The notes beneath the pieces were generated by a model. It was not told where the DNA came from. It made no database searches and saw only the letters and a list, made by a program, of their open reading frames with translations. The position numbers and the translations under genes are program-made. A stretch of 64,000 bases of DNA from an uncultured Candidatus Saccharibacteria bacterium (GTDB lineage Bacteria; Patescibacteriota; Minisyncoccia; Minisyncoccales; CG1-02-41-26), in assembly GCA_964348225.1 (NCBI GenBank), contig CAYGBM010000035.1, positions 9,425 to 73,424 of the forward strand. Reading direction: 5' to 3'. Positions 12,804 through 64,000 of the stretch are shown piece by piece; the first letter of the stretch is position 1, and each line of letters starts with the position of its first letter.

Positions 12804-14174
12804 CTAATTTAATTTTAATTTCTGGAATTCTTCACGAACAACCTTCCGGTCGTCCCAAGGGATTTTTTTGCCCTTTTCAACACAAATCCAGGGCTCACAC
12901 CCCTTGCCAGTGATAATCACTGTGTCACCGGGCTTAGCTAACTCCAGTGCCTTTCTAATAGCCTCCCGCCTATCCAAAACCTTAAACACCTGGCGTCGAA
13001 GGAACCGAGTTCCTTCGACAACGCCTTTGGCTATCTGGTTGATGATTTCCATGGGGTTTTCGTCATAAGGGTCTTCATTAGTAATAATAACTTCCCTGCA
13101 ATGCTTGGCTGCAATCTCCCCAAGAATGGGCCTTTTCCACTTGTCCCTTCCGCCCCCACATGCCCCTAAAACGCAAACGAGTTTGCGTTCAGTTATTAGT
13201 TGTTGGTTGTTGGTTGTTAGATTCTGGCTATTATTTATTAAAGTCTGATAAACTTGTTGAAGGGCGTCGGGGGTGAAGGCATAATCTACTACTACTCGGA
13301 ATGGTTCTAAGATAACCTCTTCCATTCTGCCTGGTATCCCTTTTGCTCTCTCCAGCGCCTTTTTACAAATTTCAAGAGAAACCCCCTGCGACAAAGCCAC
13401 ACTTATTGCTGCCAGCGCATTATATACATTAAAGCCGCCTAATAGTTTTAAAGAAAAAAGCATTTCGTCAATTTTAAAATTAACCCCACTTTCCGTTTCT
13501 TGCGCTTGAGTGGCTTTAATGAATTTCCAATTTTCAATTTTCAATTTCCAATCAATTTTCAATTTTTCAATTTTCAATTCGTCCAAACCGAAACAAAACT
13601 TTTGTCGGCTGGGAAAATTCAAAAAATACTCGGCATTTTCATCATCTATATTAATAATATGCATGCCTTTACACTTCTTAAAGTATGCTGATTTTGCTTT
13701 TTTGTAATTTTCAAAACTGCCGTGATGCTCAATATGCTCTTTAAACAAGTTGGTGAAAACCATTGTATCAAATCTAATAAACCTGTGTCTGTGCTGGAGC
13801 ACGCCCTCTGAGGTAACCTCTAAAACAGCGTATTTACAGCCCTTATTCACTGCTTCTCTTAAAAACTTCTGCAACAAACCTCTGCCTGGCATTGTCATCT
13901 TAAGCCTGTTTTCTTTCTCTTTCTCAGCAATTCTAAACTTTATTGAACAAGAACAAGCTGTTTTAAAACCAGCTTGTTCTAAAATTTGGGTTGCCAAATC
14001 AACCACGGTTGTTTTGCCGTGAGTACCGGTTACGCCAATAACCTTGAGTCTTCGTGAAGGAAACCTGTAAATCAAAGCACCTAAAAAAGCCCAGGCAAAA
14101 TGATAAAAGCCAACTAAAAACGAAGGAATAAGTTTCTTAAGAAAATTCTCTGACATATTAATTATTTGTACCAC
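12804..14174 (-). CDS. Mur ligase family protein, MurE-like (UDP-MurNAc-tripeptide synthetase)
   Basis: VIGVTGTHGKTT P-loop. DYAFTPDAL matches MurE DYAHTPDAL. CGGGRDKWKRP and NEDPYDENP resemble MurE C-terminal motifs. Unusual N-terminal TM segment. Contains an in-frame copy of the ttggaaatt/caattttcaa repeat family (~13510-13600, LKIEKLKIDWKLKIENWKF) and a (ttggttg)n microsatellite at 13191-13220 encoding LTTNNQQL. Confidence 0.6.
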   Translation of the reverse strand: MVQIINMSENFLKKLIPSFLVGFYHFAWAFLGALIYRFPSRRLKVIGVTGTHGKTTVVDLATQILEQAGFKTACSCSIKFRIAEKEKENRLKMTMPGRGLLQKFLREAVNKGCKYAVLEVTSEGVLQHRHRFIRFDTMVFTNLFKEHIEHHGSFENYKKAKSAYFKKCKGMHIINIDDENAEYFLNFPSRQKFCFGLDELKIEKLKIDWKLKIENWKFIKATQAQETESGVNFKIDEMLFSLKLLGGFNVYNALAAISVALSQGVSLEICKKALERAKGIPGRMEEVILEPFRVVVDYAFTPDALQQVYQTLINNSQNLTTNNQQLITERKLVCVLGACGGGRDKWKRPILGEIAAKHCREVIITNEDPYDENPMEIINQIAKGVVEGTRFLRRQVFKVLDRREAIRKALELAKPGDTVIITGKGCEPWICVEKGKKIPWDDRKVVREEFQKLKLN

Positions 14175-14230: not shown

Positions 14231-14809
14231 TTACTTGCCTAAGATCTGCAAGGCTTTTTTTATTCTTTCGTGGGTGGTTTTAATGTTTTTTGGTATTTCA
14301 GATAAGGCTTTTTTAGCCTGCTCTTTTGGAAAGCCAAGATTAACCAAGGCTAAAAACGCCTCGTCGTTTGCAAAAGCATCTTTTCCTTTCTTTGAAGAGG
14401 ACTCTTGGGTTTTAAGCTTGCCAGCAACCTCTAAAATAATTTTCTGGGCTTTCTTTTTGCCAATGCCTGGTACCCCTTCAAAAATTTTCTCATTGCCTTT
14501 TTCAATTTCTTTTTTTATTTTACTTGGAGAACCAATTGAGGAAATTTCAAGGGCAGCCCTGGGTCCTACTCCTGAGATATTGCGCACCAGCCTAAAAAAC
14601 TCCAACTCCTCAAATGTTTTAAAACCAAACAGCTTCAAGCTTCTTTCACCAACATCTAAATGACAAAAGAGTTTGAGATTTTGGCCTGCTTCTGGTATAT
14701 TTTCCATAGAAGAAGAGGAAACAAAAACCTCGTAACCAACGCCGTTGACTTCAAGTATCAAAAAGGTTTCCTTTTTGAAAATGATTTTGCCTGATAAATA
14801 AGAAATCAT
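14231..14809 (-). CDS. ruvA: Holliday junction branch migration protein RuvA
   Basis: MISYLSGKIIFKKETFLILEVNGVGYEVFVS N-terminus and HhH region. 192 aa. Confidence 0.85.
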   Translation of the reverse strand: MISYLSGKIIFKKETFLILEVNGVGYEVFVSSSSMENIPEAGQNLKLFCHLDVGERSLKLFGFKTFEELEFFRLVRNISGVGPRAALEISSIGSPSKIKKEIEKGNEKIFEGVPGIGKKKAQKIILEVAGKLKTQESSSKKGKDAFANDEAFLALVNLGFPKEQAKKALSEIPKNIKTTHERIKKALQILGK

Positions 14810-14888
14810 ACTTTAAAATTTCTAATTTCTAAACAATTTTCAATAACCCAATTTCCAAACATAGCACTCGGCATAAATCTATTTTAAC

Positions 14889-25730: not shown

Positions 25731-25854
25731 AATTATTCATCAGCCAACATTAAAACTAGTAAATAGTCTTAAGAACACTACTTACTACTTACATATTTAC
25801 TACTCACCCCGTTAGAAATTTGTAAATTTCTAACGGGGCTTACTAATTGCTCCG

Positions 25855-41100: not shown

Positions 41101-41278
41101 ATTGGAGAAATTCCAATTTCCAAGAACCAATTTCCAATGAATTTTCAATGACCAAATTTTCAAACCGTTCACATTAACGGAGCGAAGTGTTTACACCGAA
41201 CGAAGTGAGGTGTTTGAAAATTAAATAATTGAAAATTGAGGTTTCATTGGAAATTGAAAATTGTAAATTGTAAATTAC
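41101..41278. repeat. ~175-bp hairpin-forming repeat element (aatttccaa / caattttcaa family), copy A
   Basis: Fills the yebC-ruvC gap. Nearly identical in reverse complement to 47834-48006, including cattgaaaattcattggaaattggttcttggaaattgga. Shorter relatives at ~13510-13600 and ~14825-14870. Confidence 0.7.
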
Positions 41279-47833: not shown

Positions 47834-48006
47834 AAAGCCTCGGTAAATTTTCAATTTACAATTTTCAATTTTCAATGAAATTCTAATTTTCAATTATTTA
47901 ATTTTCAAACACTTTACTTTGTTCAGTGTAAACGGTTTGAAAATTGGAAATTTAGACATTGAAAATTCATTGGAAATTGGTTCTTGGAAATTGGAAATTA
48001 TGTGAA
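47834..48006. repeat. ~175-bp hairpin-forming repeat element, copy B; inverted relative to copy A
   Basis: See copy A. Inserted between rpmH and rnpA, which are usually adjacent. Confidence 0.7.
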
Positions 48007-48370: not shown

Positions 48371-48592
48371 ATGACGCAGAAAATAACCCAAAAAATATTT
48401 TTAAAAGCTGTTAGGCTTTATCAACTTTTAATCTCTCCTTTGCTGGGACCGCGCTGTAAGTTTTATCCCTCTTGTTCTGAATACAGTATTTTGGCAATCA
48501 GAGAACATGGAATATTGAAGGGGATTGTTTTGTCTTGCTGGAGAATATTGCGATGCGCTCCCTGGAGTGAGGGAGGAGTAGATTTGCCGTAA
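48371..48592 (+). CDS. yidD: membrane protein insertion efficiency factor YidD
   Basis: [54 protein letters not shown]. Confidence 0.9.
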
Positions 48593-48593
48593 T

Positions 48594-48692
48594 TAAGAAT
48601 TAAAAATTAATAATTAAGAATTTAATTAAAAGTTAAAAGTTTTCGATTGTTGATGTAATTCTTAACTTTTAATTCTTAATTATTAATTTATT
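48594..48692. repeat. AT-rich palindromic element (aattaagaatt / aattcttaatt family), complete hairpin copy
   Basis: aattaagaattaaaaattaataattaagaatttaattaaaagttaaaag - loop - cttaacttttaattcttaattattaatt. Further copies at 50047-50168, and split around the 59449-59823 gene. Confidence 0.7.
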
Positions 48693-50046: not shown

Positions 50047-50168
50047 AACAAGGATTAATTAAGAATTAAAAATTAACAATTAAGAATTAAATTTAAAATT
50101 AAAAATTACAACCTCTTAAAAGAAATTCTTAATTAAATTTTTAACTTTTAATTCTTAATTTTTAATTC
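50047..50168. repeat. AT-rich palindromic element, second complete copy
   Basis: aattaagaattaaaaattaacaattaagaattaaatttaaaattaaaaatt - loop - attcttaattaaatttttaacttttaattcttaatttttaatt. Confidence 0.7.
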
Positions 50169-50634: not shown

Positions 50635-51266
50635 GACTAGCTGCCCAATCTTTTTTACAATTTGACCAGATTAGGGAAGGGGTAATTGTGCTGAAGAACA
50701 AAGCCTTGAGAGGGATCTTGATGGTGTCTTCGGTAAACTTTGAATTGAAGTCAGCAGAAGAACAAGACGCCATCATTTTTCAGTTCCAGAATTTTTTGAA
50801 TTCCTTAGACTTTTCCTGTCAAATCATCATTCAATCAAGAAGACTCAACATCACCGGCTATTTTGAGAAGTTAAAAGAGCTTGAACGAGGGCAAAAGAAT
50901 GAGCTGTTAAAAATCCAGACCATTGAGTACCGAAAGTTTGTGGAAAAACTGGTGGCTAAAGGAACCATCATGACAAAACAGTTTTTTGTTGTTGTGCCCT
51001 ATACCATAGGCGAAATGCGGGGTATAAAATCTACAACCCCCTTTAAAAAAGGCGTGAGCATGGCTTTGACTGAAGAGGTATTCCAAAGATGTAGAGATCA
51101 GCTTTACCAGCGGATGGAATTTGTGGGCATTGGCTTGAGAAGATCTGGGTTGGGGGTTGTGCCTCTGACCACTCCCGAGCTCATCGAACTCCTTTGGGGC
51201 TGGCACCATCCAAAAGAATCAGAGGTTGGCTATTACCCCGAGATTTTACCAGAGTTTATGAAGTAA
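50631..51266 (+). CDS. virB4: VirB4/TrbE-family ATPase, N-terminal domain encoded as a separate ORF
   Basis: Start at MRLAAQSF. The block LQFDQIREGVIVLKNKALRGILMVSSVNFELKSAEEQDAIIFQFQNFLNSL...QIIIQS is the hallmark N-terminus of Gram-positive-type VirB4 proteins (I-dG-I...NF-L-S-eEQ). Ends 2 nt before the ATPase ORF, in a different frame. Confidence 0.6.
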   Translation: MRLAAQSFLQFDQIREGVIVLKNKALRGILMVSSVNFELKSAEEQDAIIFQFQNFLNSLDFSCQIIIQSRRLNITGYFEKLKELERGQKNELLKIQTIEYRKFVEKLVAKGTIMTKQFFVVVPYTIGEMRGIKSTTPFKKGVSMALTEEVFQRCRDQLYQRMEFVGIGLRRSGLGVVPLTTPELIELLWGWHHPKESEVGYYPEILPEFMK

Positions 51267-51268
51267 TC

Positions 51269-53089
51269 ATGAAACTTCCCTCTTTTTTCAAAAAAGGAAA
51301 AATTATTGAAAAGCTGGAAATCCAACCAGCAGAGATCAAGGTAGAGGACATTATTGCCCCCTCTTCCATTGAGGTAAAGCAGAACTACATTAAGCTGGGC
51401 GAGAGGTTCTGCAAGTCGTTCTTTGTTTTCTCTTACCCAAGGTATCTCTCTGCTGGCTGGCTTTCCCCTGTTGTTAACCTGAATTATTCTCTTGATATCA
51501 GTTTGCACATCCACCCCGTTGACACCGGGGCTGTTTTGAAAAGGCTGCGCAAAAAACTCACTGAAATCCAAGCTGAACTCGGGGAGAGGCAGGAAAAGGG
51601 ACTAATCAGAGACCCAGCTTTGGAGACAGCCTACAAAGATATTGAGCAGCTAAGAGACGAGCTTCAAACAGCCAGAGAAAGGGTTTTTCGCTTAGGGCTT
51701 TACCTTACTGTTTATGGTGATGATGACAAAGAATTAAGAGCGGTTGAAAGCCTTATCAGGTCAATTTTTGAGGCAAGATTAATCTATGTTAAACCAACTC
51801 TAATGAGAGAGAAAAAGGGGTTTTTCTCAACCCTTCCCTATGGGCTGGACCAAATACTGGTTCACACCCCTATGAACACTGCCCCTCTCTCTAGCATGTT
51901 TCCCTTTGTTTCTCCAGACCTGAGCGCCAACGAGGGGATCCTTTATGGCTTGAATATGCACAACAGCTCAATGGTTTTGTTTGATAGGTTCAGCTTAGAG
52001 AACGCGAACATGGTCGCCTTCGCTAAGAGTGGAGCTGGCAAGTCGTATTTCTGCAAGCTGGAAGTGCTTCGTTATCTGATGCAAGACATCGGCGTCATTG
52101 TCATAGACCCGGAGAACGAGTATGAGTTCCTGTCTGATGCTGTTGGTGGGGCTTTCTTTAAAATATCTTTAACCTCTCCTCACCACTTAAACCCTTTTGA
52201 CTTACCACCCGTTGAAGACAGAACACCAGAAGACGTTATAAGAACGAATGTTATTAACCTGGTCGGACTTTTAAGAATAATGCTCGGGGGGCTGACCCCA
52301 ACAGAGGACGCCATAATTGATAGAGCCTTAACTGAAACGTATGCTGCCAAGGACATTACCCCGGACAGTGACCCTTCAACCTGGAAAGACAAAATCCCTA
52401 TAATGTCTGATTTTGAAGCAGTGCTTTCTGGTATGGAGGGGACAGAGTCTTTACTCAAAAGGGTGAGAAAGTTTACCAAGGGGAGTTATGCTGCTTTTTT
52501 TAACAGCCCTTCAAATGTTTCTTTAGACCAGAATCTTATTATATTCGGAATCCGCGACATGGAAGATGAGCTTCGTCCTATGGCAACCTTTATTATCTTG
52601 AGATACATCTGGAATCAAATCAGGTCGGTGATGAAAAAGAGGATTCTGCTGGTTGATGAAGCCTGGTGGTTGATGCAGACAGAGGACGGGGCTTCTTTCT
52701 TGTTTGGTATTTGCAAAAGAGCAAGGAAATACTGGCTGGGCGTTTCAACCATCACTCAGGATGTTTCAGACTTTATGGGGTCAGCCTACGGCAAGCCTAT
52801 TATTACCAACTCTTCTTTGCAGCTTTTAATGAAGCAAAGCCCAGCCACCATTGATGTTGTCCAAAAAACCTTTAATCTGACCGAGGGTGAAAAGAATACT
52901 CTTCTTCAATGCGATGTTGGGGAAGGCATCTTTATCGCTGGACAAAAAAGAGTGGCTTTAAAGGTTATTGCTTCTTACGCTGAAGACCAGTTTATAACAA
53001 GCTCGCCAGAAGAAGTGAAAAAAATTAAAGAAGCCAAAAAGAAAATGATTAAAGAAGGCTACGCCCCACCAAGAAGGGGCATGTCTTAG
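51269..53089 (+). CDS. virB4: VirB4/TrbE-family ATPase, ATPase portion
   Basis: Start at MKLPSFF. FVFSYPRYLSAGWL...LHIHPVD block. Walker A AFAKSGAGKSYF. Walker B RILLVDEAWWLM. C-terminal GICKRARKYWLGVSTITQDVSDF. Confidence 0.8.
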   Translation: MKLPSFFKKGKIIEKLEIQPAEIKVEDIIAPSSIEVKQNYIKLGERFCKSFFVFSYPRYLSAGWLSPVVNLNYSLDISLHIHPVDTGAVLKRLRKKLTEIQAELGERQEKGLIRDPALETAYKDIEQLRDELQTARERVFRLGLYLTVYGDDDKELRAVESLIRSIFEARLIYVKPTLMREKKGFFSTLPYGLDQILVHTPMNTAPLSSMFPFVSPDLSANEGILYGLNMHNSSMVLFDRFSLENANMVAFAKSGAGKSYFCKLEVLRYLMQDIGVIVIDPENEYEFLSDAVGGAFFKISLTSPHHLNPFDLPPVEDRTPEDVIRTNVINLVGLLRIMLGGLTPTEDAIIDRALTETYAAKDITPDSDPSTWKDKIPIMSDFEAVLSGMEGTESLLKRVRKFTKGSYAAFFNSPSNVSLDQNLIIFGIRDMEDELRPMATFIILRYIWNQIRSVMKKRILLVDEAWWLMQTEDGASFLFGICKRARKYWLGVSTITQDVSDFMGSAYGKPIITNSSLQLLMKQSPATIDVVQKTFNLTEGEKNTLLQCDVGEGIFIAGQKRVALKVIASYAEDQFITSSPEEVKKIKEAKKKMIKEGYAPPRRGMS

Positions 53090-53100
53090 TTACTGTTTTA

Positions 53101-56100
53101 ATGCGGCTCACAAATAGCAAAAAGCTTCTCTTAGCTTTGTTGGCTGTTGGCATTTTATTTCAAGCAGGCGTTGTGTTAGCTTTGGAGTATGAATATCCCA
53201 GTCTGCCTGGCATTGGGGTTTTAAAAGAGGACCAGCCGCTCAGCTTTTACATCAAATATTTTGTCAATCTTTTCTTTTACATTGTTGCTGGAGCTTGCGT
53301 GGTGGTTATAATCTTTGGCGGGATTTTGCATATTATAGCTTCTCAAAAGCCTACCACCCTGGTTAAAGCCAGAGAATATATCAGACGAGGCCTTTTAGGT
53401 CTTTTAATTTTGCTCTGTTCTTTTTTGATTCTTTACACTATCAATCCCCAGCTTTTGCTTTTTAAAATAGACCTTGAAGAAGCAAAAATAGCCTTAGCCC
53501 CGGGCGAGAGAGAGCCTGAAGAGCCCAAAAAAGCAGGGTTTTTAGAAGTGATTCCTGGTGAGCTGGTAATGGATTCCCTCCAGTTTCTTCAGGGCAACGC
53601 TACTTTAAGTGAGGAGTTTGTCGGCGATTTCATCGCAGGCCCCGCTTTTCCAGAATATCCCCGTTTTGAAGTGTCTTTTCAAGAAGCCAAGATTTTAGCA
53701 GAGGCGCTAATTGAAAAAACCGAAATTCTGCATAATTCTTTTTGGGAATGCTGTAAGTGCGGCAATTCCTATGTTCATTATTATTTTGAGATGAAGCTGA
53801 GAGGCGCAGAATGCGGGTGCCTGAGCGGAAAAGATGAGATAATCATTGGAGGCAAAGATATAAATATCACAGACCTTGATACATGCGTTAAAGAAATAAG
53901 GGGCTGTCATAGGGAACGGATAGAATCGTGTAAGGCCTGTATAGCTGCAGGAGGAACTCACGATACCTGCTCGGGCTGTGATTTAGATGAAAACACAGCA
54001 GCCTGCGGTCAGCCAAGCGACTGTTGGGCTTGTAAGAATTTCTGCAGCCAGTGCGGGTGCAGTCCTTCCTGCTTGCGACAAAAAGGGTTAAGAGATAAAA
54101 ATGGCAACTTGGTTCCTTTTGGTGCTACCCCAAAAATGATTGATGAAATCATCAGCTATAGAAGGGATGAGATACTCGGGATTGTCAGCAAGGTTCGGGC
54201 TTTAAAAACAAAGGTGGCTGGGGTTCAGCTTACCTTGCACGACAAAGCCTTAAATGTTATCAAGGCTGCCTATATTATGCAGCATGGCGATGATTTCCTT
54301 TTTCAAACCGAGCTTGAGCAGATTAAAAGAGATTTTGAAAAAGGGCTTGTGTTTTTGAAAGATATATTAGCTCAGAGAAGGTTCACTAAGGAGGATGCTT
54401 CCTCGCAGAACATTTTAGCACAAGACAGCCCTGATGATTTTGAAGATGAGCCAGCAGACGATAGTTTGTTTAATGTTGAATTTCTAGTTCAAACATACCC
54501 GAACTGGTTAGCCACTAAAGAAAAGGTTTTAGAGACTAGGGAAAGCTCAAGTTATTTCACTTTCTATATTCCCATCACAGATGAAATCGGCATTTTTCTC
54601 CGCCAAACCTTAAAGCATAACGAGAAAATAAAACAAGAGGCTGAAGCCTCAAGCCTGTATTTGGTTATTGCTGGTTTAACCCCTCAAGAGTTCCAAGCCC
54701 TGATTGCTGAATGCTTCAGAGGGGCTTTTGGCAATGTGGAGCTTGAAACAATATTTACCAAGCAGGAAATGGAAGAGCTCTTTGATATGGTGATGAGTCT
54801 GGGAATAAGCGAAGGCTTGGGGCAGACAGCCCTTGTTAATATTGACTCTGGCAAAATAAGAGAGGAGATTATTAAAGGCATGGAAGAAGAAACAAAAGAC
54901 AGGCTTCGTGAGAAAGCAGCTGTTTCAGCAGCGGTGATGAAGTGCCTGATTGACTATTGCGGTGGGCCAGCAGGGGTCAGCAGAATGAGCGCCTGCGCTG
55001 CTTGTTCAGCTGGTGAGCCTTTGGGTTGTGGTCGGTGCGCCTGCGGTGCAGACATCACCCAAGAAAAGGTTGGAGAGTGGCAAAGCAAATGCGAAAACGA
55101 TATACCAGCTGATTTTATTTCAAGACAGTTGATTAAATTTGTCACAACAGATGTCCAGGCTTTATTGCCAGACTCCATTGAAAAACTGCTTAAAAGCAAA
55201 GTGGAAGAGGTTATTTTTGATAAAGACCTCAGGGAGTTTTACTTAGATAAAAGCCTGCTTGAACTTTTGCAGAGAGGGGCTGGCGGCATTGCTGAAAACG
55301 TTATCCAGGAGGAATTTCCTGAAATCATTAAGCTTTTACAGACCCAGCTTATTACCTTGTTGCCTAATGCTGTTGGCAACCAGTTGGGTAAGGTTGACCA
55401 GTGGCTTACCGACTACTTTGACAAATACGAAGAAATAGTCAACAAACAAATTGATGAATGGGTCGCCTGGCTCACCGGCAAAATTACCGGCTGGATAGAA
55501 GAGAAATTCGGCTCTAAAAAATACGCTGAAGAGGTGCTCAAAACACTTAAAGAAACTGACGCTTTAGCTGTTGAAGACTTTCTTGACAAGTACGCTACTT
55601 ATGAGGAGGTGGTGCTTCAAGGCACTGGAACCCCTTGTTGTGAGGACAAAGATTGTCCTGCTGCTTTGGGGCCAGGCGGAGGGGATCTTGACCAGGAAAA
55701 TCAGTGTAGGGAGGCAACTTCAAAGTGCGATTCTTCAGCACCCGATGGCGAGTGCAAGTTAGTAGAGAAAAAAAGAGGCATTACTTCAAAACAAGATTTT
55801 GTTGAGCACTGCAAAGAAGAATTAGCCAAGTCTGCAGCTCCCGACCAGACCTTGGCTGACATAAGGGTAGCTTGCGAAGGCCCTATGTGGGATAGCGTGG
55901 CTGATGTTGTTGAAAAAGAAAGAGACAGGCAGGTGGTTGAAGCAGTAACCGACCTTGATACCTACACAGATATGCTTAAGGAGTGGGGCGGTGAATTTAA
56001 AAATGTGATGGTAAGTCAGTTCAAGGCATTGCCTGGCCAGTTCTTGGCAGCTGTTGTTGAGATTTCCATTCAAACAGCAGTTGAGTATGTAAGGGTTTGG

Positions 56101-59100
56101 ACACAGGACAAGATTATGCCCTATATCTACCCCTACTTGAAGCAAGCTAAGGATTTCAGAGAGGGCTTTCGCAGTTTGCTGTCAGCCACCATCAAGGATG
56201 TTCTGCCCGCCTTTTTAAAGAGGGTTTTGGAAAGAAATCTGATTGATAATCTCAACGCCTTGCTGGAGGAATTGTGCAAGGCTGGCAGAAAGAAAGTAGA
56301 AGAAGGCCAGCCCCAGGCGTTTGTTCAGCTTGATACATATAGCTGGTTAACAGCAGAGTATAATGTTCCAGCTGAAACAGCAGAAAGAGCCTGTAGTTTA
56401 GCCAGAAATCTTAATGCTCCTCTGCGTGAAAAACTGCCAGAAGACATTCAAGAAGCCCTGAAAACAGAACTTATGAAGTTTTTGCCAGATAAATGGCAGC
56501 AGGCTTTGAACAAAAACTTAGCTGAACTTCTTTTCGAAGAGTTTGGCATTCCCAACCTTGCAGAACTTATTCAAGCTACACCCAAAAAACTTCTTTGCGG
56601 TGAATTGCCCCTTGCTGAAGGGGGGGCTACCACTTGGCAAAGATGCAGTGCTGCTCAAAACCCGGACGGCACCTTTGATGAAACCAAACTAACAGATTTG
56701 GAAAAAGTTGCTTGCCCATTTATTGACACTTTTTGCCAGAAGTCGGTTCTGGATATATTTCCCTGGCTCAGTCAAAAATTAGGCGCTCTTATCACTGGCA
56801 TACTGCAAAGAGAGTGTTTCTTTGTTTGGGGCAAGGAATGCGGCATAAGCGGAGGTCCTAAGGACTGCAAAAGATGCGAAGCCAATGAGATGGCTTTTAA
56901 AGATAAATGCCACACTGAGTGTTTGGGCAGAAAGATTTCAGACCCAGACCTTGATTGCACAACAGGTGGTACATATGAAAAAGACTGCAGAGCAAGAGAG
57001 GTTGAAGAGGCAAAGCTTGGCTGTGAAAGCTGCAATGCCTTTTTTGAGCAGAGCTTAGGTTTCTCTTTCCTATACTATCCTATCAGGTGCAAGCTTAAAG
57101 TTAAGTGGGGATTCTCTCCAGATGAAGGATACTTTAACTTGCCATCAGCAACCTGTCCTGACATACCTTATCCTCCAACCAATGTTGAGCCAGTTCCTGA
57201 AGAATTGGCTGAACAAATAGAAAAAGAAACATCTATTTATCAATGGTTTTGGGTTATTTTTGCGAAATTAAGACCAGAGATTGACGCTATAGCCAGAAGG
57301 CGGGGGCTTTGGAATGAATGGGCTGTTAAAAAAACAGTCCTCAGAGATAATGAGCCGCCAATGACCTTGCGGGACGACATTAAAGCAACCCTCAATCTTG
57401 ACAGATTCCCTGACAAGCCAGACGAAGTAGAGGAAGCCTTCCAGGTGTTTTTATCCTACTTTCTTGAACAAAGAAAGCTCTATGACCTTTTAACAGATGT
57501 TCCTTTGGGCGTGGTAAAACCCATTGACTTTGAAGGCAGGTCAATTTTAAGAGAAAAAGGACAGGGCGAGAAAAAGAACTTTTTAGCCAAAACAATCTGG
57601 GGCGTTTTGCAAGCAGGCTGCCAAAGGGTTAGAGATGAATTTGACCAGAACATCAGGCCTTCTCCTCGTCCTGCTCCCTATGACCAATTGAGTTCAGCAG
57701 AAGTTGAGGCTTATAAAACAGCCTACAAGATTTGTGTGAATTTAGATTCTACTTTAGGTGTTGCTGTTGGTATTGATAAAAAACTGGTTGAATACACTAA
57801 TGGCTATTACAATATGTTTGTTCTGCTCAGGGACGAAAAACAGGATTACTGGGCGCCTGAAGAAAAACCTGAAAAGTTAAGAGAGCTTTTGAACTATATG
57901 TTCAACAAAACCGCGGTCAATGCTTTGTATGATGGAGGAGTAAAGCTGCAGCAAACAGGCAGTTCTTGGATGTTGCCCGTGTGCCGGGCATTAAAATCCT
58001 CTCCCATAGCTGATGAACTGCGCGTTAAGAAGGAATGTTGTGAGAGAGAAGGAGCAGGCGCTCAACAGACCCGCTGCGTTCAAGGGGCAGATTTGGAAGC
58101 TTTGGGTAAATACATGCAGAATTTGGCTGTTTTGCTTGGCGGTGGGCCTGTCAGCAAAACATTAGGCCAGATGATTCTTGAGAAATGGCCATTCCTTAAC
58201 AATGAGGCAATTATCAACCAGGTTTTTGGCATAATATGCGATAATGTCTGCTCTGGTGAAAGTGATCCAAATTGCCACACCAAATGCATGGGGCTTTTGC
58301 AAAAATCTTTGGCTCAAATATTCAAGGTTGAAGAAGAAATAAGGCTGTTTAACAAGGTTCAGGATGAGTTAAAGAAAACGCCAGCCGAACTCTTGAGTCT
58401 TTTGTTACAAAAACACGACAAAACCCTGCTTGACTTGCTTGACCTTGACCAGGAAACCAGGGATATTCTTGCAGAGCCCATCTCTGAATATTTGGAGGAT
58501 AAGCACTTTATTCTTGGTCGTACCTTTATTGATATACTGGGTGCTGGTTTGGGGCTGGATAAAGACCTGAAAACTGCTTTGGATTTTTATGATGAAGAAG
58601 TTGAGCCGAAACTAAAAAAAGGCCTTAATAAAATCCAAAAGATTATTCAAGACGGGTTTGACCTTATGATTGAAACCCCAGAAGCTATCCTTGCTTATAT
58701 TGCCAAAGTTACTAACCAGCAATGGATGGATAGATTCAGAAAGAGGTTGTTTATGAATATTACAGGCGGTTGTGAGGTAATGGGATATAAAGAATGGAGC
58801 ATTAAGCCCGAACATTTAATGGAATGGTATGTAGATCCTTTGAATGAGGGCAGGGTTTCTGGCGACCTTTTAAACGCTATTATGGAAAAAGGCTTTTATT
58901 TCTTACAAGAAAAAGCAATTGTTGTCTCTACCAGTGAAGCTAGCTGGACCGTAACTGATCCCAACGGTAATGTTTATTTTATTACTCTTGAAGGAGATGA
59001 GCTGAAGATTACTTTCCGCAACCCAGAATGTACACCACCAAGGGTGTACATTAAAGAAAACCAGGAATGTTGTGATTTGGGCAAGTCATTGTTCTGCAAA

Positions 59101-59388
59101 AAAGCAGAAGAAGGGGAAGAGTGCCTGAGATGTCGCTTGCTGGGCATGGGACAAACTAAAAACGACTGCGTTTCAGATGAAAAATACATAGAAGAAGAAG
59201 ACGAAGCCACAGGCCAAACGCTTAAAAAGTGCTGTCGGGGTGAGCCACCTAACATAGATGGAGAGTGCTGCCAAACAGTTATTGATTGCATTGTTGACAA
59301 AATAAGCTACTTTTTAATCACTGGCTTAACCGATGCTTTAACCAGCGGCTCCCCAGCCAATGAAGTAGCGCCAGGACTTGAACCATAG
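53101..59388 (+). CDS. giant (2095 aa) cysteine-rich protein with N-terminal TrbC/VirB2-like pilin hairpin
   Basis: Signal peptide (LLLALLAVGILFQAGVVLA). Hydrophobic helix 1 FFYIVAGACVVVIIFGGILHIIAS, basic loop QKPTTLVKAREYIRRG, helix 2 LLGLLILLCSFLILYTINPQLL. Then ~1950 aa of acidic, helical, Cys-cluster-rich sequence, e.g. CKACIAAGGTHDTCSGCDLDENTAACGQPSDCWACKNFCSQCGCSPSC. Confidence 0.6.
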   Translation: MRLTNSKKLLLALLAVGILFQAGVVLALEYEYPSLPGIGVLKEDQPLSFYIKYFVNLFFYIVAGACVVVIIFGGILHIIASQKPTTLVKAREYIRRGLLGLLILLCSFLILYTINPQLLLFKIDLEEAKIALAPGEREPEEPKKAGFLEVIPGELVMDSLQFLQGNATLSEEFVGDFIAGPAFPEYPRFEVSFQEAKILAEALIEKTEILHNSFWECCKCGNSYVHYYFEMKLRGAECGCLSGKDEIIIGGKDINITDLDTCVKEIRGCHRERIESCKACIAAGGTHDTCSGCDLDENTAACGQPSDCWACKNFCSQCGCSPSCLRQKGLRDKNGNLVPFGATPKMIDEIISYRRDEILGIVSKVRALKTKVAGVQLTLHDKALNVIKAAYIMQHGDDFLFQTELEQIKRDFEKGLVFLKDILAQRRFTKEDASSQNILAQDSPDDFEDEPADDSLFNVEFLVQTYPNWLATKEKVLETRESSSYFTFYIPITDEIGIFLRQTLKHNEKIKQEAEASSLYLVIAGLTPQEFQALIAECFRGAFGNVELETIFTKQEMEELFDMVMSLGISEGLGQTALVNIDSGKIREEIIKGMEEETKDRLREKAAVSAAVMKCLIDYCGGPAGVSRMSACAACSAGEPLGCGRCACGADITQEKVGEWQSKCENDIPADFISRQLIKFVTTDVQALLPDSIEKLLKSKVEEVIFDKDLREFYLDKSLLELLQRGAGGIAENVIQEEFPEIIKLLQTQLITLLPNAVGNQLGKVDQWLTDYFDKYEEIVNKQIDEWVAWLTGKITGWIEEKFGSKKYAEEVLKTLKETDALAVEDFLDKYATYEEVVLQGTGTPCCEDKDCPAALGPGGGDLDQENQCREATSKCDSSAPDGECKLVEKKRGITSKQDFVEHCKEELAKSAAPDQTLADIRVACEGPMWDSVADVVEKERDRQVVEAVTDLDTYTDMLKEWGGEFKNVMVSQFKALPGQFLAAVVEISIQTAVEYVRVWTQDKIMPYIYPYLKQAKDFREGFRSLLSATIKDVLPAFLKRVLERNLIDNLNALLEELCKAGRKKVEEGQPQAFVQLDTYSWLTAEYNVPAETAERACSLARNLNAPLREKLPEDIQEALKTELMKFLPDKWQQALNKNLAELLFEEFGIPNLAELIQATPKKLLCGELPLAEGGATTWQRCSAAQNPDGTFDETKLTDLEKVACPFIDTFCQKSVLDIFPWLSQKLGALITGILQRECFFVWGKECGISGGPKDCKRCEANEMAFKDKCHTECLGRKISDPDLDCTTGGTYEKDCRAREVEEAKLGCESCNAFFEQSLGFSFLYYPIRCKLKVKWGFSPDEGYFNLPSATCPDIPYPPTNVEPVPEELAEQIEKETSIYQWFWVIFAKLRPEIDAIARRRGLWNEWAVKKTVLRDNEPPMTLRDDIKATLNLDRFPDKPDEVEEAFQVFLSYFLEQRKLYDLLTDVPLGVVKPIDFEGRSILREKGQGEKKNFLAKTIWGVLQAGCQRVRDEFDQNIRPSPRPAPYDQLSSAEVEAYKTAYKICVNLDSTLGVAVGIDKKLVEYTNGYYNMFVLLRDEKQDYWAPEEKPEKLRELLNYMFNKTAVNALYDGGVKLQQTGSSWMLPVCRALKSSPIADELRVKKECCEREGAGAQQTRCVQGADLEALGKYMQNLAVLLGGGPVSKTLGQMILEKWPFLNNEAIINQVFGIICDNVCSGESDPNCHTKCMGLLQKSLAQIFKVEEEIRLFNKVQDELKKTPAELLSLLLQKHDKTLLDLLDLDQETRDILAEPISEYLEDKHFILGRTFIDILGAGLGLDKDLKTALDFYDEEVEPKLKKGLNKIQKIIQDGFDLMIETPEAILAYIAKVTNQQWMDRFRKRLFMNITGGCEVMGYKEWSIKPEHLMEWYVDPLNEGRVSGDLLNAIMEKGFYFLQEKAIVVSTSEASWTVTDPNGNVYFITLEGDELKITFRNPECTPPRVYIKENQECCDLGKSLFCKKAEEGEECLRCRLLGMGQTKNDCVSDEKYIEEEDEATGQTLKKCCRGEPPNIDGECCQTVIDCIVDKISYFLITGLTDALTSGSPANEVAPGLEP

Positions 59389-59390
59389 CT

Positions 59391-59880
59391 TATAAATTAA
59401 GAATTGAAAATTAATAATTAAGAATTTAATTAAAAATTAAAAATTGTTGTGAGGTATTCAAATAAAGAAGAATTCAAGAAAGCGCTTAAGAAAAGAGCTT
59501 ACAACTTTTCAATCCAATTGGTGAACTTTACCGAAGGATTACCCAGGGGCAACACTTGCTTTATTATTGGCAATCAACTTCTTCGCAGTGGAACAAGTAT
59601 TGGTGCAAACATTGTAGAAGCCCAGGGCGCGAGCTCAAAAAGAGACTTCATTAATTTTCTCACCTATGCTTTTAAATCTTCCAATGAAACCAGATATTGG
59701 CTCGGCCTTTTACGAGATACAGAAAAAGCAGATCAAGAACAGGCTAATAGTTTGTTAACAGAAGCAGATGAGCTTTCAAAAATATTGAGTTCAATTCTGT
59801 TGTCCTTAAAAGGAAAAAAATAATTCTTAATTCTTAATTAAATTTTTAATTCTTAATTCTTAATTTTTAATTCATATAAG
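59391..59880. mobile_element. four-helix-bundle gene carried in the loop of an AT-rich palindromic element (IVS-like cassette)
   Basis: Left half-element 59391-59448 (aattaagaatt... motifs). Right half 59824-59880 (aattcttaatt... motifs, the reverse complement). The halves match the left and right arms of the intact hairpins at 48594 and 50047. Confidence 0.55.
59449..59823 (+). CDS. four-helix-bundle protein (TIGR02436; 23S rRNA intervening-sequence protein family)
   Basis: GTG start. YNFSIQLVNFTEGLPRGNTCFIIGNQLLRSGTSIGANIVEAQGASSKRDFINFLTYAFKSSNETRYWLGLLRD matches the family pattern (...R.A.SI..NIAEG..R.S.K.F..FL.IA.GS..E..T.L). Confidence 0.7.
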   Translation: MRYSNKEEFKKALKKRAYNFSIQLVNFTEGLPRGNTCFIIGNQLLRSGTSIGANIVEAQGASSKRDFINFLTYAFKSSNETRYWLGLLRDTEKADQEQANSLLTEADELSKILSSILLSLKGKK

Positions 59881-62800
59881 ATGGCAATCTTTAATAGAAA
59901 ATACATCAAAGTCCCTATTATTGCCCTAATTGTTGTTTCTTTACTTTTGCAGTTTTTTCCAGCTCCCAAAAAAGCCCAGGCTTTTGATGTGGTGGAGAGT
60001 GCTAAGAGTCTTTTAAGAAAGATTCAGCAAATAATAGAGGGAATGGTAAGGGCGATTCCAGAGTTTAGCATTAGCGGAGCAGGATTAACATGTAAGGGGG
60101 CTGATAGGATTAGTTTTTTTGGCATAGACTGCTGTAAGCTAGGAGATTTAGGCATACGGTGTTGGTGGCTTGACGATAATCCTTTCAGCCGATTTTCTTT
60201 TAGAACCGATTCAGCAGGGGATATAGAAATTGACCTCGGTTTTCTGGGTACCCTGACTCTTCCCAATCCTTTTGGCAGGCTTGATGAAGAAAGAGCAGAT
60301 AAGGTAGCCAAGCCTGAAGGCTTGGAGATTTGCAGATGGAGGATACCCACAGGCGAGAACGCAATTACTGAAGAAGATGTTGAAAAATTTTGCATTGAAG
60401 AATGCGAGGGTGCAGATGCTACAGAAACAACGTGTGATGCTTGCAAGGGGGAAAAGGTTTTAGAACACAGAAGAAAAGTCCAGCAAGCCTGCGCTGAGTT
60501 AAGAAGAATTGAAAGAACAGCAGCCAGATTAACCTATTTTGCCAAGCAGATTTATTTGAAAACCGATCCTTTAAAAGAATGCCTTTTCCTGCGAAACTGC
60601 CGCACTGTTTGCCAGTTTGCTTTTGGCACTTACAGTTTTAATTTCAATGCCATGGATCTTCTCAGCCTCATTCTGCCAATCGGCTGGCTCACCAAACTTA
60701 ACGAGATTTTGACTGTTATCGTTAATATCGGGAAAACACTCCAAACCCTTAGGACTATTTTAGAGCTCATTAGTGCTGTGCGCGCTTTTGCAACAACCAT
60801 TGGCAGTACCATCCAGGATGCTATGAGCGCCCTTAAAACTTTAACCAGAGGCTCTGTTGCCAGGTGGTTTGATGCTGACACCTGGGAGGAATTTCCTGAC
60901 AACCTTATCAACTTCCAGCTAACAAAGAACAGGGCGCTTGCCAGGATTGACGCAACCAACGAGCGCTTGAAAGAGATTGAAGTGGAAATTCTGAGCCAGG
61001 CTGGCATAAGCGAAGACAATCCAGAATGGAAAAAACTAATGATTATTTTTGAAGCTTACTCTAATGACTTCAGAAATTTTTCCAGTCTGGAGACCCCGGA
61101 TTTGGATTTTATAAAAAACGAAATTAAAGCTATTGCTCAAGCTATTAAAGAGGCTGCAGAGTTTGCTGCTGAAAAAAACAACACTGACGACCGTCGTGAG
61201 CCGCCTCAACCTCAGTTGTCAGATAATCACTTTGAAGAAATTATTTTAGGCAGAAGAGGGCCAGCCCCAGGCTTTATAAGTGAGAACGGGCTTTTGCAAG
61301 CCAAAGAAGCGCTTGACAAGGTCAGGGGGCTCGAGGTGGCGATTGTGGTTGAAGCAGAAAAGCTGGAACAGCAAGATACACTAGATGTATTGAAGAAAGC
61401 AGATGGGGTAACTGACACAGGCGTTTACGAAATCAAGGAAACCTGGCGAATGCCCTGGCCGCCAACAAGATTCGGCGTAATGAGAGAGTCTCTTGAAAGG
61501 ATTGAAGAAATCAGGTTGTCGTCAGAAGATATCCTGCCAGAGCTTGAAGAAATCAAGGATATAGAGGCTGCCTTGGCAAAAAATGCAGAAGAAAGGTATT
61601 TTAGCCCAGAGACTTATGAAAAAGCTCTTGAGGATGACGATTATCCTGATTGCGAGGGCGGAGTGGGATGCAGTGATACTGATCCTGAGCTTGTTGAATG
61701 CAAGGACCTCTGCAATGACAATGGCCAACCCTGCGATAATGACGAAGAGGACTGCAAGGACTATTGCAACAACTATCCCATAGAGGATAAGTATGATTGC
61801 CGGAGCGCCTGTGTCCTGTTTCTTTTAGACGAACCTTATCTCGCCTGTGGGAATTATTGCAATAATCGTTGCGATTCTTCTTCTTGCAGTGTTTCTAGAT
61901 GCAAGAGTGCCTGTGATGAGGGCGAGCGTACATGTGAGGATATTTGCAGAGAAGATTGCGAAGATACTTGTGGGTTCAGAGAAGGGATGTGTTCACAGGG
62001 CTTTAATGTTTGCAAGGATAAGTGCGATGATTCTACAAGCAAGCTTTGGTATCAAGATGAGATAAATTGTATAAAGGCTTGCGGGTCGTCTAACACTCGC
62101 AGCGACTGTTTTAAGGCCTGCGATGAGTTTGACAACCAGGAGGCTGAATGGAGGTGTGAAGAAGAGTGTCATAATACCTGCAATCCTTCCTGCGGTGAGA
62201 GTATTTGCAAAGATGCTTGCGAAAAAGGGCTTCAGAGGGCTGTTGATTGGTGCAGGGCTGTTTACTGCGTTGATAAATGCCAGAATGGAGGTGGCAAGGC
62301 TGAATGTACTGAAGAGAGTTGTAAAGACTGCTGGCGAGACAAACAGGATGCTTTAGCCAACCAAGCAGAGTTTAAAGCTATTCTTGACCCCTTCAGCACC
62401 CAGGCTGATTCCATAAGAAAATATATTACCTTGCATTCTACAGAGCCTGGCTCTTGCGAAACAGCCTATGGCTACGTGCCATCTTACAGTAGATTCTTTG
62501 ATTTGGAATTTGAAATAAAAGGAGGATTTTTAGATAATCTAGATTGCTTTGAAAAAGTGATAGGCAGGGAAAGGGGCTGGCCTTATCCTGCCAGAATTGA
62601 ATTTTATTTTGATGAATGGAAAATATACCTTGAAATTTTAGAAGAGCTTGCAGAGGTTGAAGAAAAGCTTGCTATTATTAAAGAAAGCCTCACCGAGCTT
62701 GAGCCCCTCATAGACGTGCCGCCGGGCAAGGAAGGCGACTTAGAGTTTGGCGATATCTTCAAAACACCCTATGATTTTATAGACGATTTGGTTGAAAAAA

Positions 62801-64000
62801 TTGTCAGAGGAGGACGGGAGGCAATTAAGATTCTTGACCTTGTTGAAACAGGCGTTACTCACGAGAAGCATTTCGGTGAAATGGCCGACGATGAGCTTAA
62901 AGCCTGCATTGAATGTTTGAGAGAAGCGCCTTATGAAAATAAAATAGATGCTTGCAATTCAGAAACAGGGGTTTGGCAAAAAGTCTGCAAGTTTGCAGCA
63001 AGGCCCTATGCTGACTATATTTGTTCCAACGACCTTGACAAAGTAAACGTTTGCCCAGATCTTTTCGAACTTAAAGAAAGATACATTGGTAAAACAACAA
63101 GCATTTTGGATGCTTTAAGCAATATTGTGGAAACAGGTGAGGGGTTAGACCAGGATTTTGACAAACATGATGTCACCCCAGAGGAGATTTTTGCAGAATA
63201 TGAGGACGCTGAATTACCTCCTTGGTTCCACAAATTCCTTGAGCTGGTATTTAAAGCCAGGGAGGCAAAGTGGGATATGCTTGATGTTCAATCATCTGAA
63301 AAAGAGCTCTCAACAGCGCCTTTGCAGGTATATGACGAAGACACATCTGGCAATGCCTGCCCGAGATGGTGCGAAGAGTTCTGCGGTAAAGAATACTGTC
63401 AAAGTTCAGGGCTGGAAGGTTCAAAGCCCGATCCTGCGTTTTGCAGTAATTGCGGCTGGGACCAAGAAGGCGTGGTTTGTTCTTGCTGGCGTCATCTAAA
63501 CCACGGAGAGCTTGTCAGGCTTTTAGAAGAGATGGTGGAAAAGGTTCTGATGGTAAAAGAAAAGCTTGAGGATGCTTCCAAGAAGATAGGCGAGATTGAG
63601 TCCCTTGAGCAGGTTTTACCATTAGCACCGCCAAACCCGCTTAAAGATGTTAGCATTGTCACCAACACTTATTGTCGCAATAAATGCATAGCAGTGGCTG
63701 GGGGCGCAACATCAGGCCCAACCTTTGACCTTTGCTACGACACTTGTCTTAAGTTAAATCCAGGCATAGCAATGAATGATATTGCCCGGAAAATCCAAGA
63801 GATGAACTGGACAGTGGCTTTCTCTGATACATTGACAGCTGGCATAAAATATAATGCCAGGAACCTTGGGCTTTTAAAAACTAAGATTCAGCAGGAGCTT
63901 GGTAAGGTACAGGGCTTAATTGCTGACCTGAACGATATTATAGGGCTTGATATAACAAGCACGCTCCCAGAAAACATTTCAGCAGCCTTGGCTGGCAAAA
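59881..64000 (+). CDS. giant secreted cysteine-rich protein, 3'-partial (>1373 aa; runs off window end)
   Basis: Translated by hand in frame from ATG 59881 to 64000 without a stop. Absent from the track because no in-window stop. Signal peptide MAIFNRKYIKVPIIALIVVSLLLQFFPAPKKAQA. Cys-dense block at ~61640-62340 (CEGGVGCSDTDPELVECKDLCNDNGQPCDNDEEDCKDYCNNY...). Confidence 0.7.
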   Translation, partial: MAIFNRKYIKVPIIALIVVSLLLQFFPAPKKAQAFDVVESAKSLLRKIQQIIEGMVRAIPEFSISGAGLTCKGADRISFFGIDCCKLGDLGIRCWWLDDNPFSRFSFRTDSAGDIEIDLGFLGTLTLPNPFGRLDEERADKVAKPEGLEICRWRIPTGENAITEEDVEKFCIEECEGADATETTCDACKGEKVLEHRRKVQQACAELRRIERTAARLTYFAKQIYLKTDPLKECLFLRNCRTVCQFAFGTYSFNFNAMDLLSLILPIGWLTKLNEILTVIVNIGKTLQTLRTILELISAVRAFATTIGSTIQDAMSALKTLTRGSVARWFDADTWEEFPDNLINFQLTKNRALARIDATNERLKEIEVEILSQAGISEDNPEWKKLMIIFEAYSNDFRNFSSLETPDLDFIKNEIKAIAQAIKEAAEFAAEKNNTDDRREPPQPQLSDNHFEEIILGRRGPAPGFISENGLLQAKEALDKVRGLEVAIVVEAEKLEQQDTLDVLKKADGVTDTGVYEIKETWRMPWPPTRFGVMRESLERIEEIRLSSEDILPELEEIKDIEAALAKNAEERYFSPETYEKALEDDDYPDCEGGVGCSDTDPELVECKDLCNDNGQPCDNDEEDCKDYCNNYPIEDKYDCRSACVLFLLDEPYLACGNYCNNRCDSSSCSVSRCKSACDEGERTCEDICREDCEDTCGFREGMCSQGFNVCKDKCDDSTSKLWYQDEINCIKACGSSNTRSDCFKACDEFDNQEAEWRCEEECHNTCNPSCGESICKDACEKGLQRAVDWCRAVYCVDKCQNGGGKAECTEESCKDCWRDKQDALANQAEFKAILDPFSTQADSIRKYITLHSTEPGSCETAYGYVPSYSRFFDLEFEIKGGFLDNLDCFEKVIGRERGWPYPARIEFYFDEWKIYLEILEELAEVEEKLAIIKESLTELEPLIDVPPGKEGDLEFGDIFKTPYDFIDDLVEKIVRGGREAIKILDLVETGVTHEKHFGEMADDELKACIECLREAPYENKIDACNSETGVWQKVCKFAARPYADYICSNDLDKVNVCPDLFELKERYIGKTTSILDALSNIVETGEGLDQDFDKHDVTPEEIFAEYEDAELPPWFHKFLELVFKAREAKWDMLDVQSSEKELSTAPLQVYDEDTSGNACPRWCEEFCGKEYCQSSGLEGSKPDPAFCSNCGWDQEGVVCSCWRHLNHGELVRLLEEMVEKVLMVKEKLEDASKKIGEIESLEQVLPLAPPNPLKDVSIVTNTYCRNKCIAVAGGATSGPTFDLCYDTCLKLNPGIAMNDIARKIQEMNWTVAFSDTLTAGIKYNARNLGLLKTKIQQELGKVQGLIADLNDIIGLDITSTLPENISAALAGK

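Follow-up and report, generated by a model that had tools for sequence, protein, structure and literature searches.

Open reading frames (ORFs) have been described within intervening sequences (IVSs) of 23S rRNA in Leptospira, Coxiella burnetii and Brucella (Ralph & McClelland 1993; Warrier et al. 2016, PMC4990558), and the question of the function and origin of bacterial rRNA IVSs, and of the very large PF05635 family ("23S rRNA IVS protein / four helix bundle protein"), dates from 1993. A contig from an uncultured Candidatus Saccharibacteria bacterium raises this question in another setting. Here, a gene of the same family lies between two giant protein-coding genes, enclosed by the arms of a long palindrome. 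Do these arms belong to the gene or to the site at which it lies, and what may they do at the junction of an operon? The window analyzed below is the whole 64,000-nucleotide stretch of this contig, to which a contig of GCA_012974985.1 is 99.8% identical.

A PF05635 gene, its arms and its operon

The four-helix-bundle protein gene (PF05635/TIGR02436), delineated by ORF calling, HMM matches and an AF2 model, occupies positions 59449..59823 of the forward (+) strand. It opens with a GTG codon that lines up with the start codons (ATG or GTG) of homologous genes, lacks a Shine-Dalgarno sequence, and encodes a protein of 124 aa. PF05635 is the sole Pfam match of this protein (E 5.9e-26, 91.2 bits against a cutoff of 33.8), and TIGR02436, "four helix bundle protein", is matched with an E value of 2.8e-30 (104.8 bits, cutoff 24). 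The family assignment made in the first-pass annotation, an IVS-type four-helix bundle, is thus borne out. The AF2 model, based on an alignment of 31 homologues, reaches a mean pLDDT of 95.9 and contains helices at residues 6-29, 35-59, 64-90, and 96-120. Compared with PDB structures by Foldseek, it resembles most closely 2RLD, the Bacteroides protein BT_0352 (TM 0.79-0.90; 45% identity; profile match E 5e-28), followed by 2GSC, the Xanthomonas protein XCC0516 (TM 0.77-0.84), each of which comprises five chains. The next matches are to Avd, a protein of diversity-generating retroelements (DGRs), represented by 4DWL/8UB7 (TM ~0.72, 16% identity).

This gene is flanked by two arms. The left arm (59389..59448, +) is A-rich and built of about eight heptad units, including AATTAAG, AATTGAA, AATTAAT and others, while the T-rich right arm (59821..59880, +) is its reverse complement and forms a 54-bp duplex with it. 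The fit to the neighboring genes is tight: the left arm starts 1 nt past the stop codon of the upstream giant gene (TAG, 59386-88), and the right arm overlaps the TAA stop of the PF05635 ORF and runs to 1 nt short of the downstream giant gene's ATG (59881), with the 492-nt spacer between the giant genes fully taken up by the cassette. It had been proposed that the arms are separated by exactly one ORF and that this ORF would form the loop of a fold. Both expectations hold, as an ORF scan found the single frame 59449-59823, and the MFE fold of 59380-59890 places it in the loop of one terminal stem (z = -5.3, with 0 of 100 shuffles as good). Folded on their own, the arms form 54 intermolecular pairs (49 A-U, 4 G.U, and 1 C-G) at -36 kcal/mol, the outermost of which is 59389:59880. 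A consensus scan for terminators and promoters placed nothing at the arms and gave overall counts not above those of shuffled sequences, and a terminator or promoter reading of the arms was therefore rejected.

The position between two giant genes, also noted from the letters, is correct, and both genes lie on the same strand. Giant gene 1, the upstream host gene (53101..59388, +), encodes a Cys-rich protein of 2095 aa, and giant gene 2, the downstream host gene (59881..64000, +), encodes at least 1373 aa before it runs off the window; neither has a Pfam match. Just before giant gene 1 lies a VirB4/TraC-like ATPase gene (51194-53089), within a gene string that is conserved in Patescibacteria. 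This long, co-directional string contains all three arm-bearing loci of the window and includes, in order, rpmH, a hairpin (47846-48005), rnpA, yidD, a second hairpin (48591-48690), yidC, jag, and a third hairpin (50052-50168), after which it continues with a small membrane protein gene, orf258, the VirB4/TraC-like ATPase gene, giant gene 1, the cassette, and giant gene 2. Ordinary junctions of the string, like those of its relatives, measure 1-11 nt. The geometry of an IVS, with a sense PF05635 ORF inside terminal inverted repeats between co-directional genes, is found here as had been supposed, in a window where searches for rRNA, tRNA, or any Rfam family gave no match and where no RNase III gene (rnc) was found.

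Two ORF-less hairpins belong to the same arm family as the cassette. One of them (48591..48690, +) fills the spacer from the yidD stop to the yidC start, and the other (50052..50168, +) lies downstream of jag/khpB. The homology of the cassette arms to these intact palindromes, previously read from the letters, was confirmed by program alignment at 90-94% identity, with 48/51 and 47/52 identical positions for the left arm and 24/26 and 43/46 for the right arm. Allowing up to three mismatches, AATTAAGAATTAAAAATTAA occurs 21 times, always at the cassette or the two ORF-less hairpins, where 0.04 occurrences are expected. The loops of these hairpins were also searched for ORF remnants; this candidate was rejected, as only matches of 4-10 nt were seen (e.g. 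CTTAAAAG), which are not significant. A hairpin of a second heptad family, with opposite polarity and without a cognate gene within the window, is located between rpmH and rnpA (47846-48005), and a gene-less heptad hairpin (41108-41276) lies exactly at the yebC|ruvC junction. Heptad arrays occur elsewhere in the window as well.

Arms and gene in relatives and across the family

The three closest homologues (P0002-P0004), with 72-79% amino acid identity, come from other CPR genomes and carry arms of the same kind. Their context is unlike that of the window: higB-higA|IVP|metK, where IVP denotes the PF05635 gene. When the window is aligned with L003, L008, and L009, DNA homology begins and ends at the outer arm edges. 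Identity to the window amounts to 81-87% in the arms (85% between the left arm of the window and that of L003), 70% in the ORF, 39-48% at third codon positions, and about 40% in the outer flanks, which are unrelated. All three full cassettes retain the terminal stem in the RNAalifold consensus, and the heptad's variable seventh position forms a C:G pair in L009 but G.U or A.U in the others. Because homology with relatives in other contexts stops at the outer arm edges, the arms evidently belong to the cassette and not to the insertion site, and by these identities they are the best-conserved part of the arm-ORF-arm unit.

The association of arms and ORF is old, since synonymous sites are saturated: between the window ORF and its close relatives, pS reaches 0.8-0.95, with pN at 0.12-0.16. 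Together with a dN/dS of 0.02 for the PF05635 genes of L003 and L008, these values show strong purifying selection on the protein. The cassette is promoterless by position, and both its arms and its protein are functionally constrained. Gene-less heptad hairpins occur sporadically among relatives (L092, L169, L089, L065, and L003). Given the age of the arm-ORF unit and the 90-94% identity that the hairpins still share with the cassette arms, the ORF-less hairpins of the window are more likely to be young derivatives or copies of these arms than pre-existing targets.

In a family-wide survey, one genome per GTDB species was searched with the alignment of 31 homologues; more than 3,000 relatives were scored in all, and 80 loci were sampled. 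These loci come from CPR phyla, Bacteroidota, Ignavibacteriota, Planctomycetota, Verrucomicrobiota, Omnitrophota, Atribacterota, Cyanobacteria, Acidobacteriota, and one Micrarchaeia (DPANN) archaeon. The arm score was defined as the best local inverted repeat between the sequences just upstream and just downstream of the gene. A score of at least 30 was reached by 67 of 78 PF05635 genes (~86%) compared with 3 of 295 control positions (1%) in the same loci. An earlier and stricter scoring had found arms at 42/80 loci; the corresponding figures were 0/224 for random positions and 4% for other small ORFs. A search of 2.9 million viral contigs returned seven PF05635 matches, six of them with arms; a phage origin was rejected on account of this small number. 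The arm-ORF-arm architecture is near-universal in the sampled clade, including bacteria, the DPANN archaeon, and a few viral contigs. None of the 80 PF05635 loci is located in rRNA, and the family name reflects where these genes were first sighted, not their usual location.

These comparisons divide the earlier proposal of a mobile IVS-like cassette that inserts into local palindromes. Its IVS-like character stands, but the notion of insertion into pre-existing palindromes is not supported, as the arms travel with the ORF and 67 of 78 relatives carry flush arms of their own. The search for the same arms in relatives, which had been suggested as a test, recovered them with the ORF in unrelated contexts, and gene-less heptad hairpins turned up sporadically.

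Tandem 7-nt units build the arms of 79 of 82 cassettes, and in 73/82 the left arm, upstream on the coding strand, has more A than T. The median arm length is 43.5 nt. The heptad unit varies by lineage (AAGAATT, AAAAGTT, AAAAGTC, AAAAATC, AAATATC, AATTTAG, AATTACG, and others), and the units loosely fit A4-5-N-T-Y. Orientation is also nearly uniform. The nearest upstream ORF shares the strand of the PF05635 gene at 70/71 loci, the nearest downstream ORF does so at 74/79, and both neighbors do so at 65/70, which gives p ~1e-4 to 1e-5 when the baseline for neighboring genes of these loci is deliberately set high, at 0.85. At the median, the outer edge of the left arm is 1 nt away from the upstream stop codon, and that of the right arm is 6 nt away from the downstream start codon. 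Contexts include yebC|IVP|ruvC, T4SS_pilin|IVP|T4SS_pilin, and IVP|nrdD, to which cmr3|IVP|cmr2 can be added (PMC3936711). A promoterless gene that landed in a short operon spacer could by itself account for the shared orientation and the flush edges, with no role of the stem in coupling.

Proposed processing at the junction and known systems compared

The description of the element as a cassette, that is, a conserved arm-ORF-arm block lying sense to the host operon and filling a tight junction, is very probably correct. A fuller explanation, held with evenly balanced confidence, is that of a promoterless IVS-type cassette, composed of a PF05635 gene and heptad arms, which is read through and processed by RNase III at the operon junction. 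According to this model, the cassette would sit in the otherwise tight junction of two co-transcribed giant genes in a T4SS-like operon of Patescibacteria and would be transcribed by read-through from the host operon. In the RNA, the arms would pair into a long A-U stem that closes off the cassette and brings the stop codon of giant gene 1 beside the start codon of giant gene 2. This stem would then be cut by RNase III, as happens in the homologous rRNA intervening sequences, and the cut would free a small mRNA and part the flanking cistrons. Alternatively, a residual or intact stem may hold the flanking cistrons together, keeping the upstream stop beside the downstream start. The insertion would thereby stay tolerable to the host operon, and the ORF-less hairpins at other junctions would represent derived copies with the same junction role. 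By homology with Avd, a pentamer that holds an RNA stem-loop, it may reasonably be guessed that the PF05635 protein binds RNA stems, perhaps the heptad stems.

The RNase III step itself is advanced with confidence at, or slightly short of, an even level. A near-perfect duplex of 54 bp is a generic substrate of this enzyme, and the step is proposed for that reason and because the stem of the Coxiella IVS is cut mid-stem around a homologous sense ORF. The Coxiella element has a terminal stem of 28 bp, cleaved by RNase III, and its ORF is sense to the rRNA transcript (PMC4990558); by this measure the 54-bp stem of the window is long enough to be a candidate substrate. The excised Coxiella IVS RNA is quickly degraded, and its protein is seemingly not made (PMC4990558), so excision does not obviously serve expression.

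The likeness to rRNA IVSs extends to several features. In both cases, a homologous ORF (PF05635, 'S23p') lies sense to the host transcript between terminal inverted repeats, which pair into a single long stem; a Shine-Dalgarno sequence is weak or missing, and distribution is sporadic. The differences are equally clear: the host of the present element is a junction of a protein-coding operon, not the tip of an rRNA helix, and its stem has 54 bp of nearly pure A-U built of 7-nt units, as against 28 bp in Coxiella. Cleavage by RNase III is known in Coxiella, whereas the present element is known from its sequence, and the protein is under purifying selection here but decaying in Coxiella. Although the enclosing inverted-repeat stem and the sense ORF are both present, the cassette is not classed as an rRNA IVS, because the defining location at an rRNA helix tip is absent.

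Stem-loops between the cistrons of a polycistronic transcript are also found in phage T7, whose early mRNA contains intercistronic hairpins processed by RNase III that are short, irregular, gene-free, and interrupted by an internal loop. By analogy, the ORF-less hairpins at rpmH|rnpA, yidD|yidC, jag|, and yebC|ruvC likely play a T7-like junction role. Unlike the T7 hairpins, the stems of the window are long and repeat-built, and one of them encloses a gene.

A further parallel is provided by RAYT genes and REPINs (PMC3116915), in which a gene is flanked by inverted short repeats and gene-less hairpin doublets are found elsewhere in the genome. Such gene-less inverted doublets are present within the 64 kb of genome covered by the window, but a Y1 transposase is not. 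RAYT is a Y1 HUH transposase whose chemistry is known, but no catalysis is known for PF05635, a small helical bundle; REPs are GC-rich palindromes of ~20 nt in place of heptad arrays, and REPINs follow no orientation rule relative to operons. An integron gene cassette is likewise a poor description, as the arms face each other in inverted orientation on either side of the ORF, in place of a single 3' attC, and the window contains no integrase.

Heptad repeats as such are widespread. Cyanobacterial STRR heptamers are related heptad repeats. Intergenic heptanucleotide direct repeats upstream of start codons, such as TAACTGA, have been reported from Beggiatoaceae, cyanobacteria, and Bacteroidetes (PMC4679880). 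These arrays resemble the left arm in having 7-nt tandem units just upstream of start codons, oriented with the gene. However, they are one-sided direct repeats that are not tied to one gene family, while the array of the cassette is mirrored downstream as its reverse complement and tied to PF05635 genes.

In the literature outside subscription journals, no account was found that reports, for PF05635 genes outside rRNA, flanking hairpins or heptads, a shared orientation with the operon, or the juxtaposition of stop and start codons. What was first seen in rRNA appears to be a single example of a broader, as yet undescribed class of operon-embedded cassettes. Should the pattern be upheld, a rule of packaging would define the family more than rRNA does, according to which a promoterless gene lies sense to its host operon within a heptad stem that joins the stop and start codons of its neighbors. 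The long-standing question would then be directly testable in tractable carriers; cultured ones include Bacteroides thetaiotaomicron (BT_0352), Nostoc PCC 7120 (alr0549 and paralogues), Flavobacterium, and Xanthomonas (XCC0516), and complete genomes with cassettes include CP011215.1 (Campbellbacteria) and CP075895.1 (Chitinophagaceae). The pattern also matters for the annotation of CPR, Bacteroidota, and cyanobacterial genomes, in which arms and gene-less copies fill junctions of core operons (rpmH-rnpA-yidD-yidC, yebC-ruvC), and it makes the cassette a candidate natural design for inserting a gene without breaking an operon.

Mobility, stem recognition and other explanations

The strongest rival to RNase III processing of a read-through transcript is a mobile element acting at the DNA level, an explanation that is on the whole unlikely. 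Here the arms would be terminal inverted repeats, or hairpins formed in single-stranded DNA or cruciforms for transposition or recombination; the ORF-less hairpins would be MITE-like non-autonomous elements, the protein would have an accessory or maintenance function, and the RNA stem would be a by-product. Such an origin is compatible with the favored explanation. The close similarity of the three window loci speaks for it, together with the lack of arms at the same sites in relatives with 62-79% VirB4 identity. So do the presence of cassettes at many unrelated junctions, their sporadic occurrence within a conserved operon, and the closest proteins, which at 50-60% identity are scattered through many phyla. 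The VirB4 operon is shared, at 62-79% identity, by 80 metagenomic relatives, of which only three carry a PF05635 gene, at two junctions. In L151 and L166, the gene lies upstream of orf258 with flush arms, and in L100 the orthologous giant1|giant2 junction holds a PF05635 gene with 37% protein identity, another heptad unit, and flush arms, pointing to a separate insertion or a replacement.

The arms themselves provide a test of the level at which they are maintained. Where selection on the sense RNA maintains a stem, G.U mismatches usually outnumber A.C mismatches. No such bias was found in the arms, with 126 G.U and 115 A.C mismatches on the sense strand (p = 0.52) and 39 of each in a separate count. 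This result fits maintenance of the palindrome at the DNA level equally well, and complementarity may be renewed there, by concerted evolution or by the mode of copying, rather than policed on the sense RNA. Other evidence weighs against a DNA-level element. Neither a transposase nor an integrase or nuclease is encoded by the cassette, catalysis is not known for PF05635, and no target-site duplication is visible at 59389/59880. Sense orientation at 70 of 71 loci would be unexpected for a symmetric palindrome unless expression is also selected. Recent mobility, sought as identical proteins in several contexts, left no direct sign, since P0012, P0007, and P0077 each occur in one context across 8-17 contigs. 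Nor was an empty site found: among 5.8 billion proteins, the nearest relative has 79-80% VirB4 identity, with giant genes about 30% identical.

A second rival assigns the central role to the protein. In this case a PF05635 pentamer would bind the heptad stems around its own gene and those of the ORF-less hairpins, autoregulating its expression or controlling processing, stability, or translation at operon junctions, much as RAYTs act on REPINs, but on RNA. This possibility is rated as rather improbable. The match to the Avd fold lends it some weight, as Avd is a positively charged pentamer in which all five protomers contact one 11-bp RNA stem-loop (bioRxiv 10.1101/2023.10.23.563531), and the related structures 2RLD and 2GSC have five chains each. 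The strict 7-nt period and the conservation of arm sequence beyond mere complementarity point in the same direction, as does the unit type that ORF-less hairpins share with the neighboring cassette in the window, L089, and L065. For non-DGR members, however, such binding is purely inferential; the hairpin near the L003 cassette has a unit unlike that of the cassette, and the second hairpin family of the window is of opposite polarity and has no cognate gene there. Heptanucleotide arrays are, moreover, more frequent in prokaryotes than any other long simple repeat, and they may arise by slippage and not for the sake of recognition (PMC4679880). A bolder extension, also with a low chance of being right, would make the pentamer and heptad stems a self-propagating or self-regulating RNA-level system, of which the classical rRNA IVSs would be copies landed in rRNA. 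The protein would recognize the stems around its own gene and around gene-less copies and direct their processing or spread, for example by RNase III-defined excision and re-insertion through a reverse transcriptase acting in trans, echoing the part of Avd in DGR cDNA synthesis.

It is very improbable that the arms are incidental, whether as intergenic heptanucleotide repeats or as a bidirectional, terminator-like pair of A-tract and T-tract. Heptad arrays elsewhere in the window and upstream of start codons in other lineages (PMC4679880) would allow for the former, and the A-rich 5' and T-rich 3' polarity resembles the flanks of a terminator. Against this, the arms accompany most PF05635 genes and hardly any control position, they are more conserved than synonymous sites, and their complementarity is kept while units change, as in the C:G pair of L009; further, no terminator-like site scored at the arms, and the downstream genes are co-directional.

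Least probable of all is that the gene is the Avd of a DGR acting to diversify the giant surface proteins. DGRs abound in CPR genomes, giant surface proteins are adjacent, and the protein shares its fold and superfamily with Avd (4DWL, 8UB7), a pentameric barrel that binds an RNA stem-loop; in DGRs, the avd coding RNA pairs through its 3' end with RNA that lies downstream. Avd-like proteins also belong to PF05635 (PMC10053308). This candidate was nevertheless rejected, as neither the 37 scanned ORFs of the window nor the 3 kb past it on L001 yielded a reverse transcriptase, no TR/VR-like long direct repeat (~100-150 nt, differing at A) was seen in the 64 kb, and the protein is much closer to the non-DGR protein 2RLD than to Avd.

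As a separate observation, the L002 contig joins the cassette to an iscU-like gene; this contig is probably an assembly chimera formed through another copy of the arm.

Giant genes and their junction in a relative

The PF05635 cassette of the window lies between two giant genes, giant gene 1 (53101-59388; 2095 aa) and giant gene 2 (59881-64000; at least 1373 aa), both of which are Cys-rich, lack a Pfam match and carry an N-terminal signal or TM segment. A third giant gene (7315-12096; 1593 aa) bears a T4SS_pilin domain at its end. In relatives, the giant genes share only ~30% identity, compared with 62-79% for the adjacent VirB4, indicating that they evolve very fast. In L100, a locus from a relative whose VirB4 is 71% identical to that of the window, the orthologous giant1/giant2 junction holds a different PF05635 gene with 37% identity (L100 9818-10423), and the arms of this cassette are built from AAGATAC units. 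An extra A-rich arm copy is located downstream, which gives the T-rich arm two potential A-rich pairing partners.

Heptad arms and arrays in other contigs

In the Logan contig L002, the cassette of the window (99.9% identical over 1.6 kb) is joined to an oppositely oriented iscU-like gene (L002 1-200), and its outermost arm units carry two substitutions. The join reflects either a chimeric assembly through a further copy of the arm or a second site in the genome. In the compared locus L169 (1-850 and 1592-1943), heptad-repeat arms 77-120 nt long also enclose a non-PF05635 gene, encoding a 144-aa membrane protein of a T4SS-like cluster, or form nested hairpins. Thus, heptad packaging is not strictly confined to PF05635 genes. 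An Ignavibacteriae genome (L061) carries a tandem array of ~235 nt (1555-1790), comprising ~33 copies of the window's unit AATTAAG/AATTGAG, with no complementary array adjoining it; the array is situated 1.2 kb upstream of that genome's own PF05635 cassette.

A second heptad family and GC-clamped palindromes

Two hairpins of a second heptad family (each ~-46 kcal/mol) exactly fill the rpmH/rnpA (47846-48005) and yebC/ruvC (41108-41276) junctions. Their units are AATTTTC/AATTTCC in the left arm and GAAAATT/GGAAATT in the right arm, a polarity opposite to that of the cassette arms. In another organism (L180-L187), the yebC/ruvC junction, which holds the second-family hairpin in the window, is occupied by a PF05635 cassette. 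An arm-like array of this family (13522-13579) is located within a Mur-ligase gene (ORF 12804-14174, minus strand), is translated in frame with it as ELKIEKLKIDWKLKIENWKF, and looks like repeat DNA inserted in frame into the coding region. A further half-site (14803-14860) lies between ruvA and uvrB. Separately, a GC-clamped palindrome of 40 nt (ACCCCGTTAGAAATTTGTAAATTTCTAACGGGG...) occurs at gene ends in two copies that are 98% identical (2935-2974 and 25806-25845), and these look like shared intrinsic terminators.
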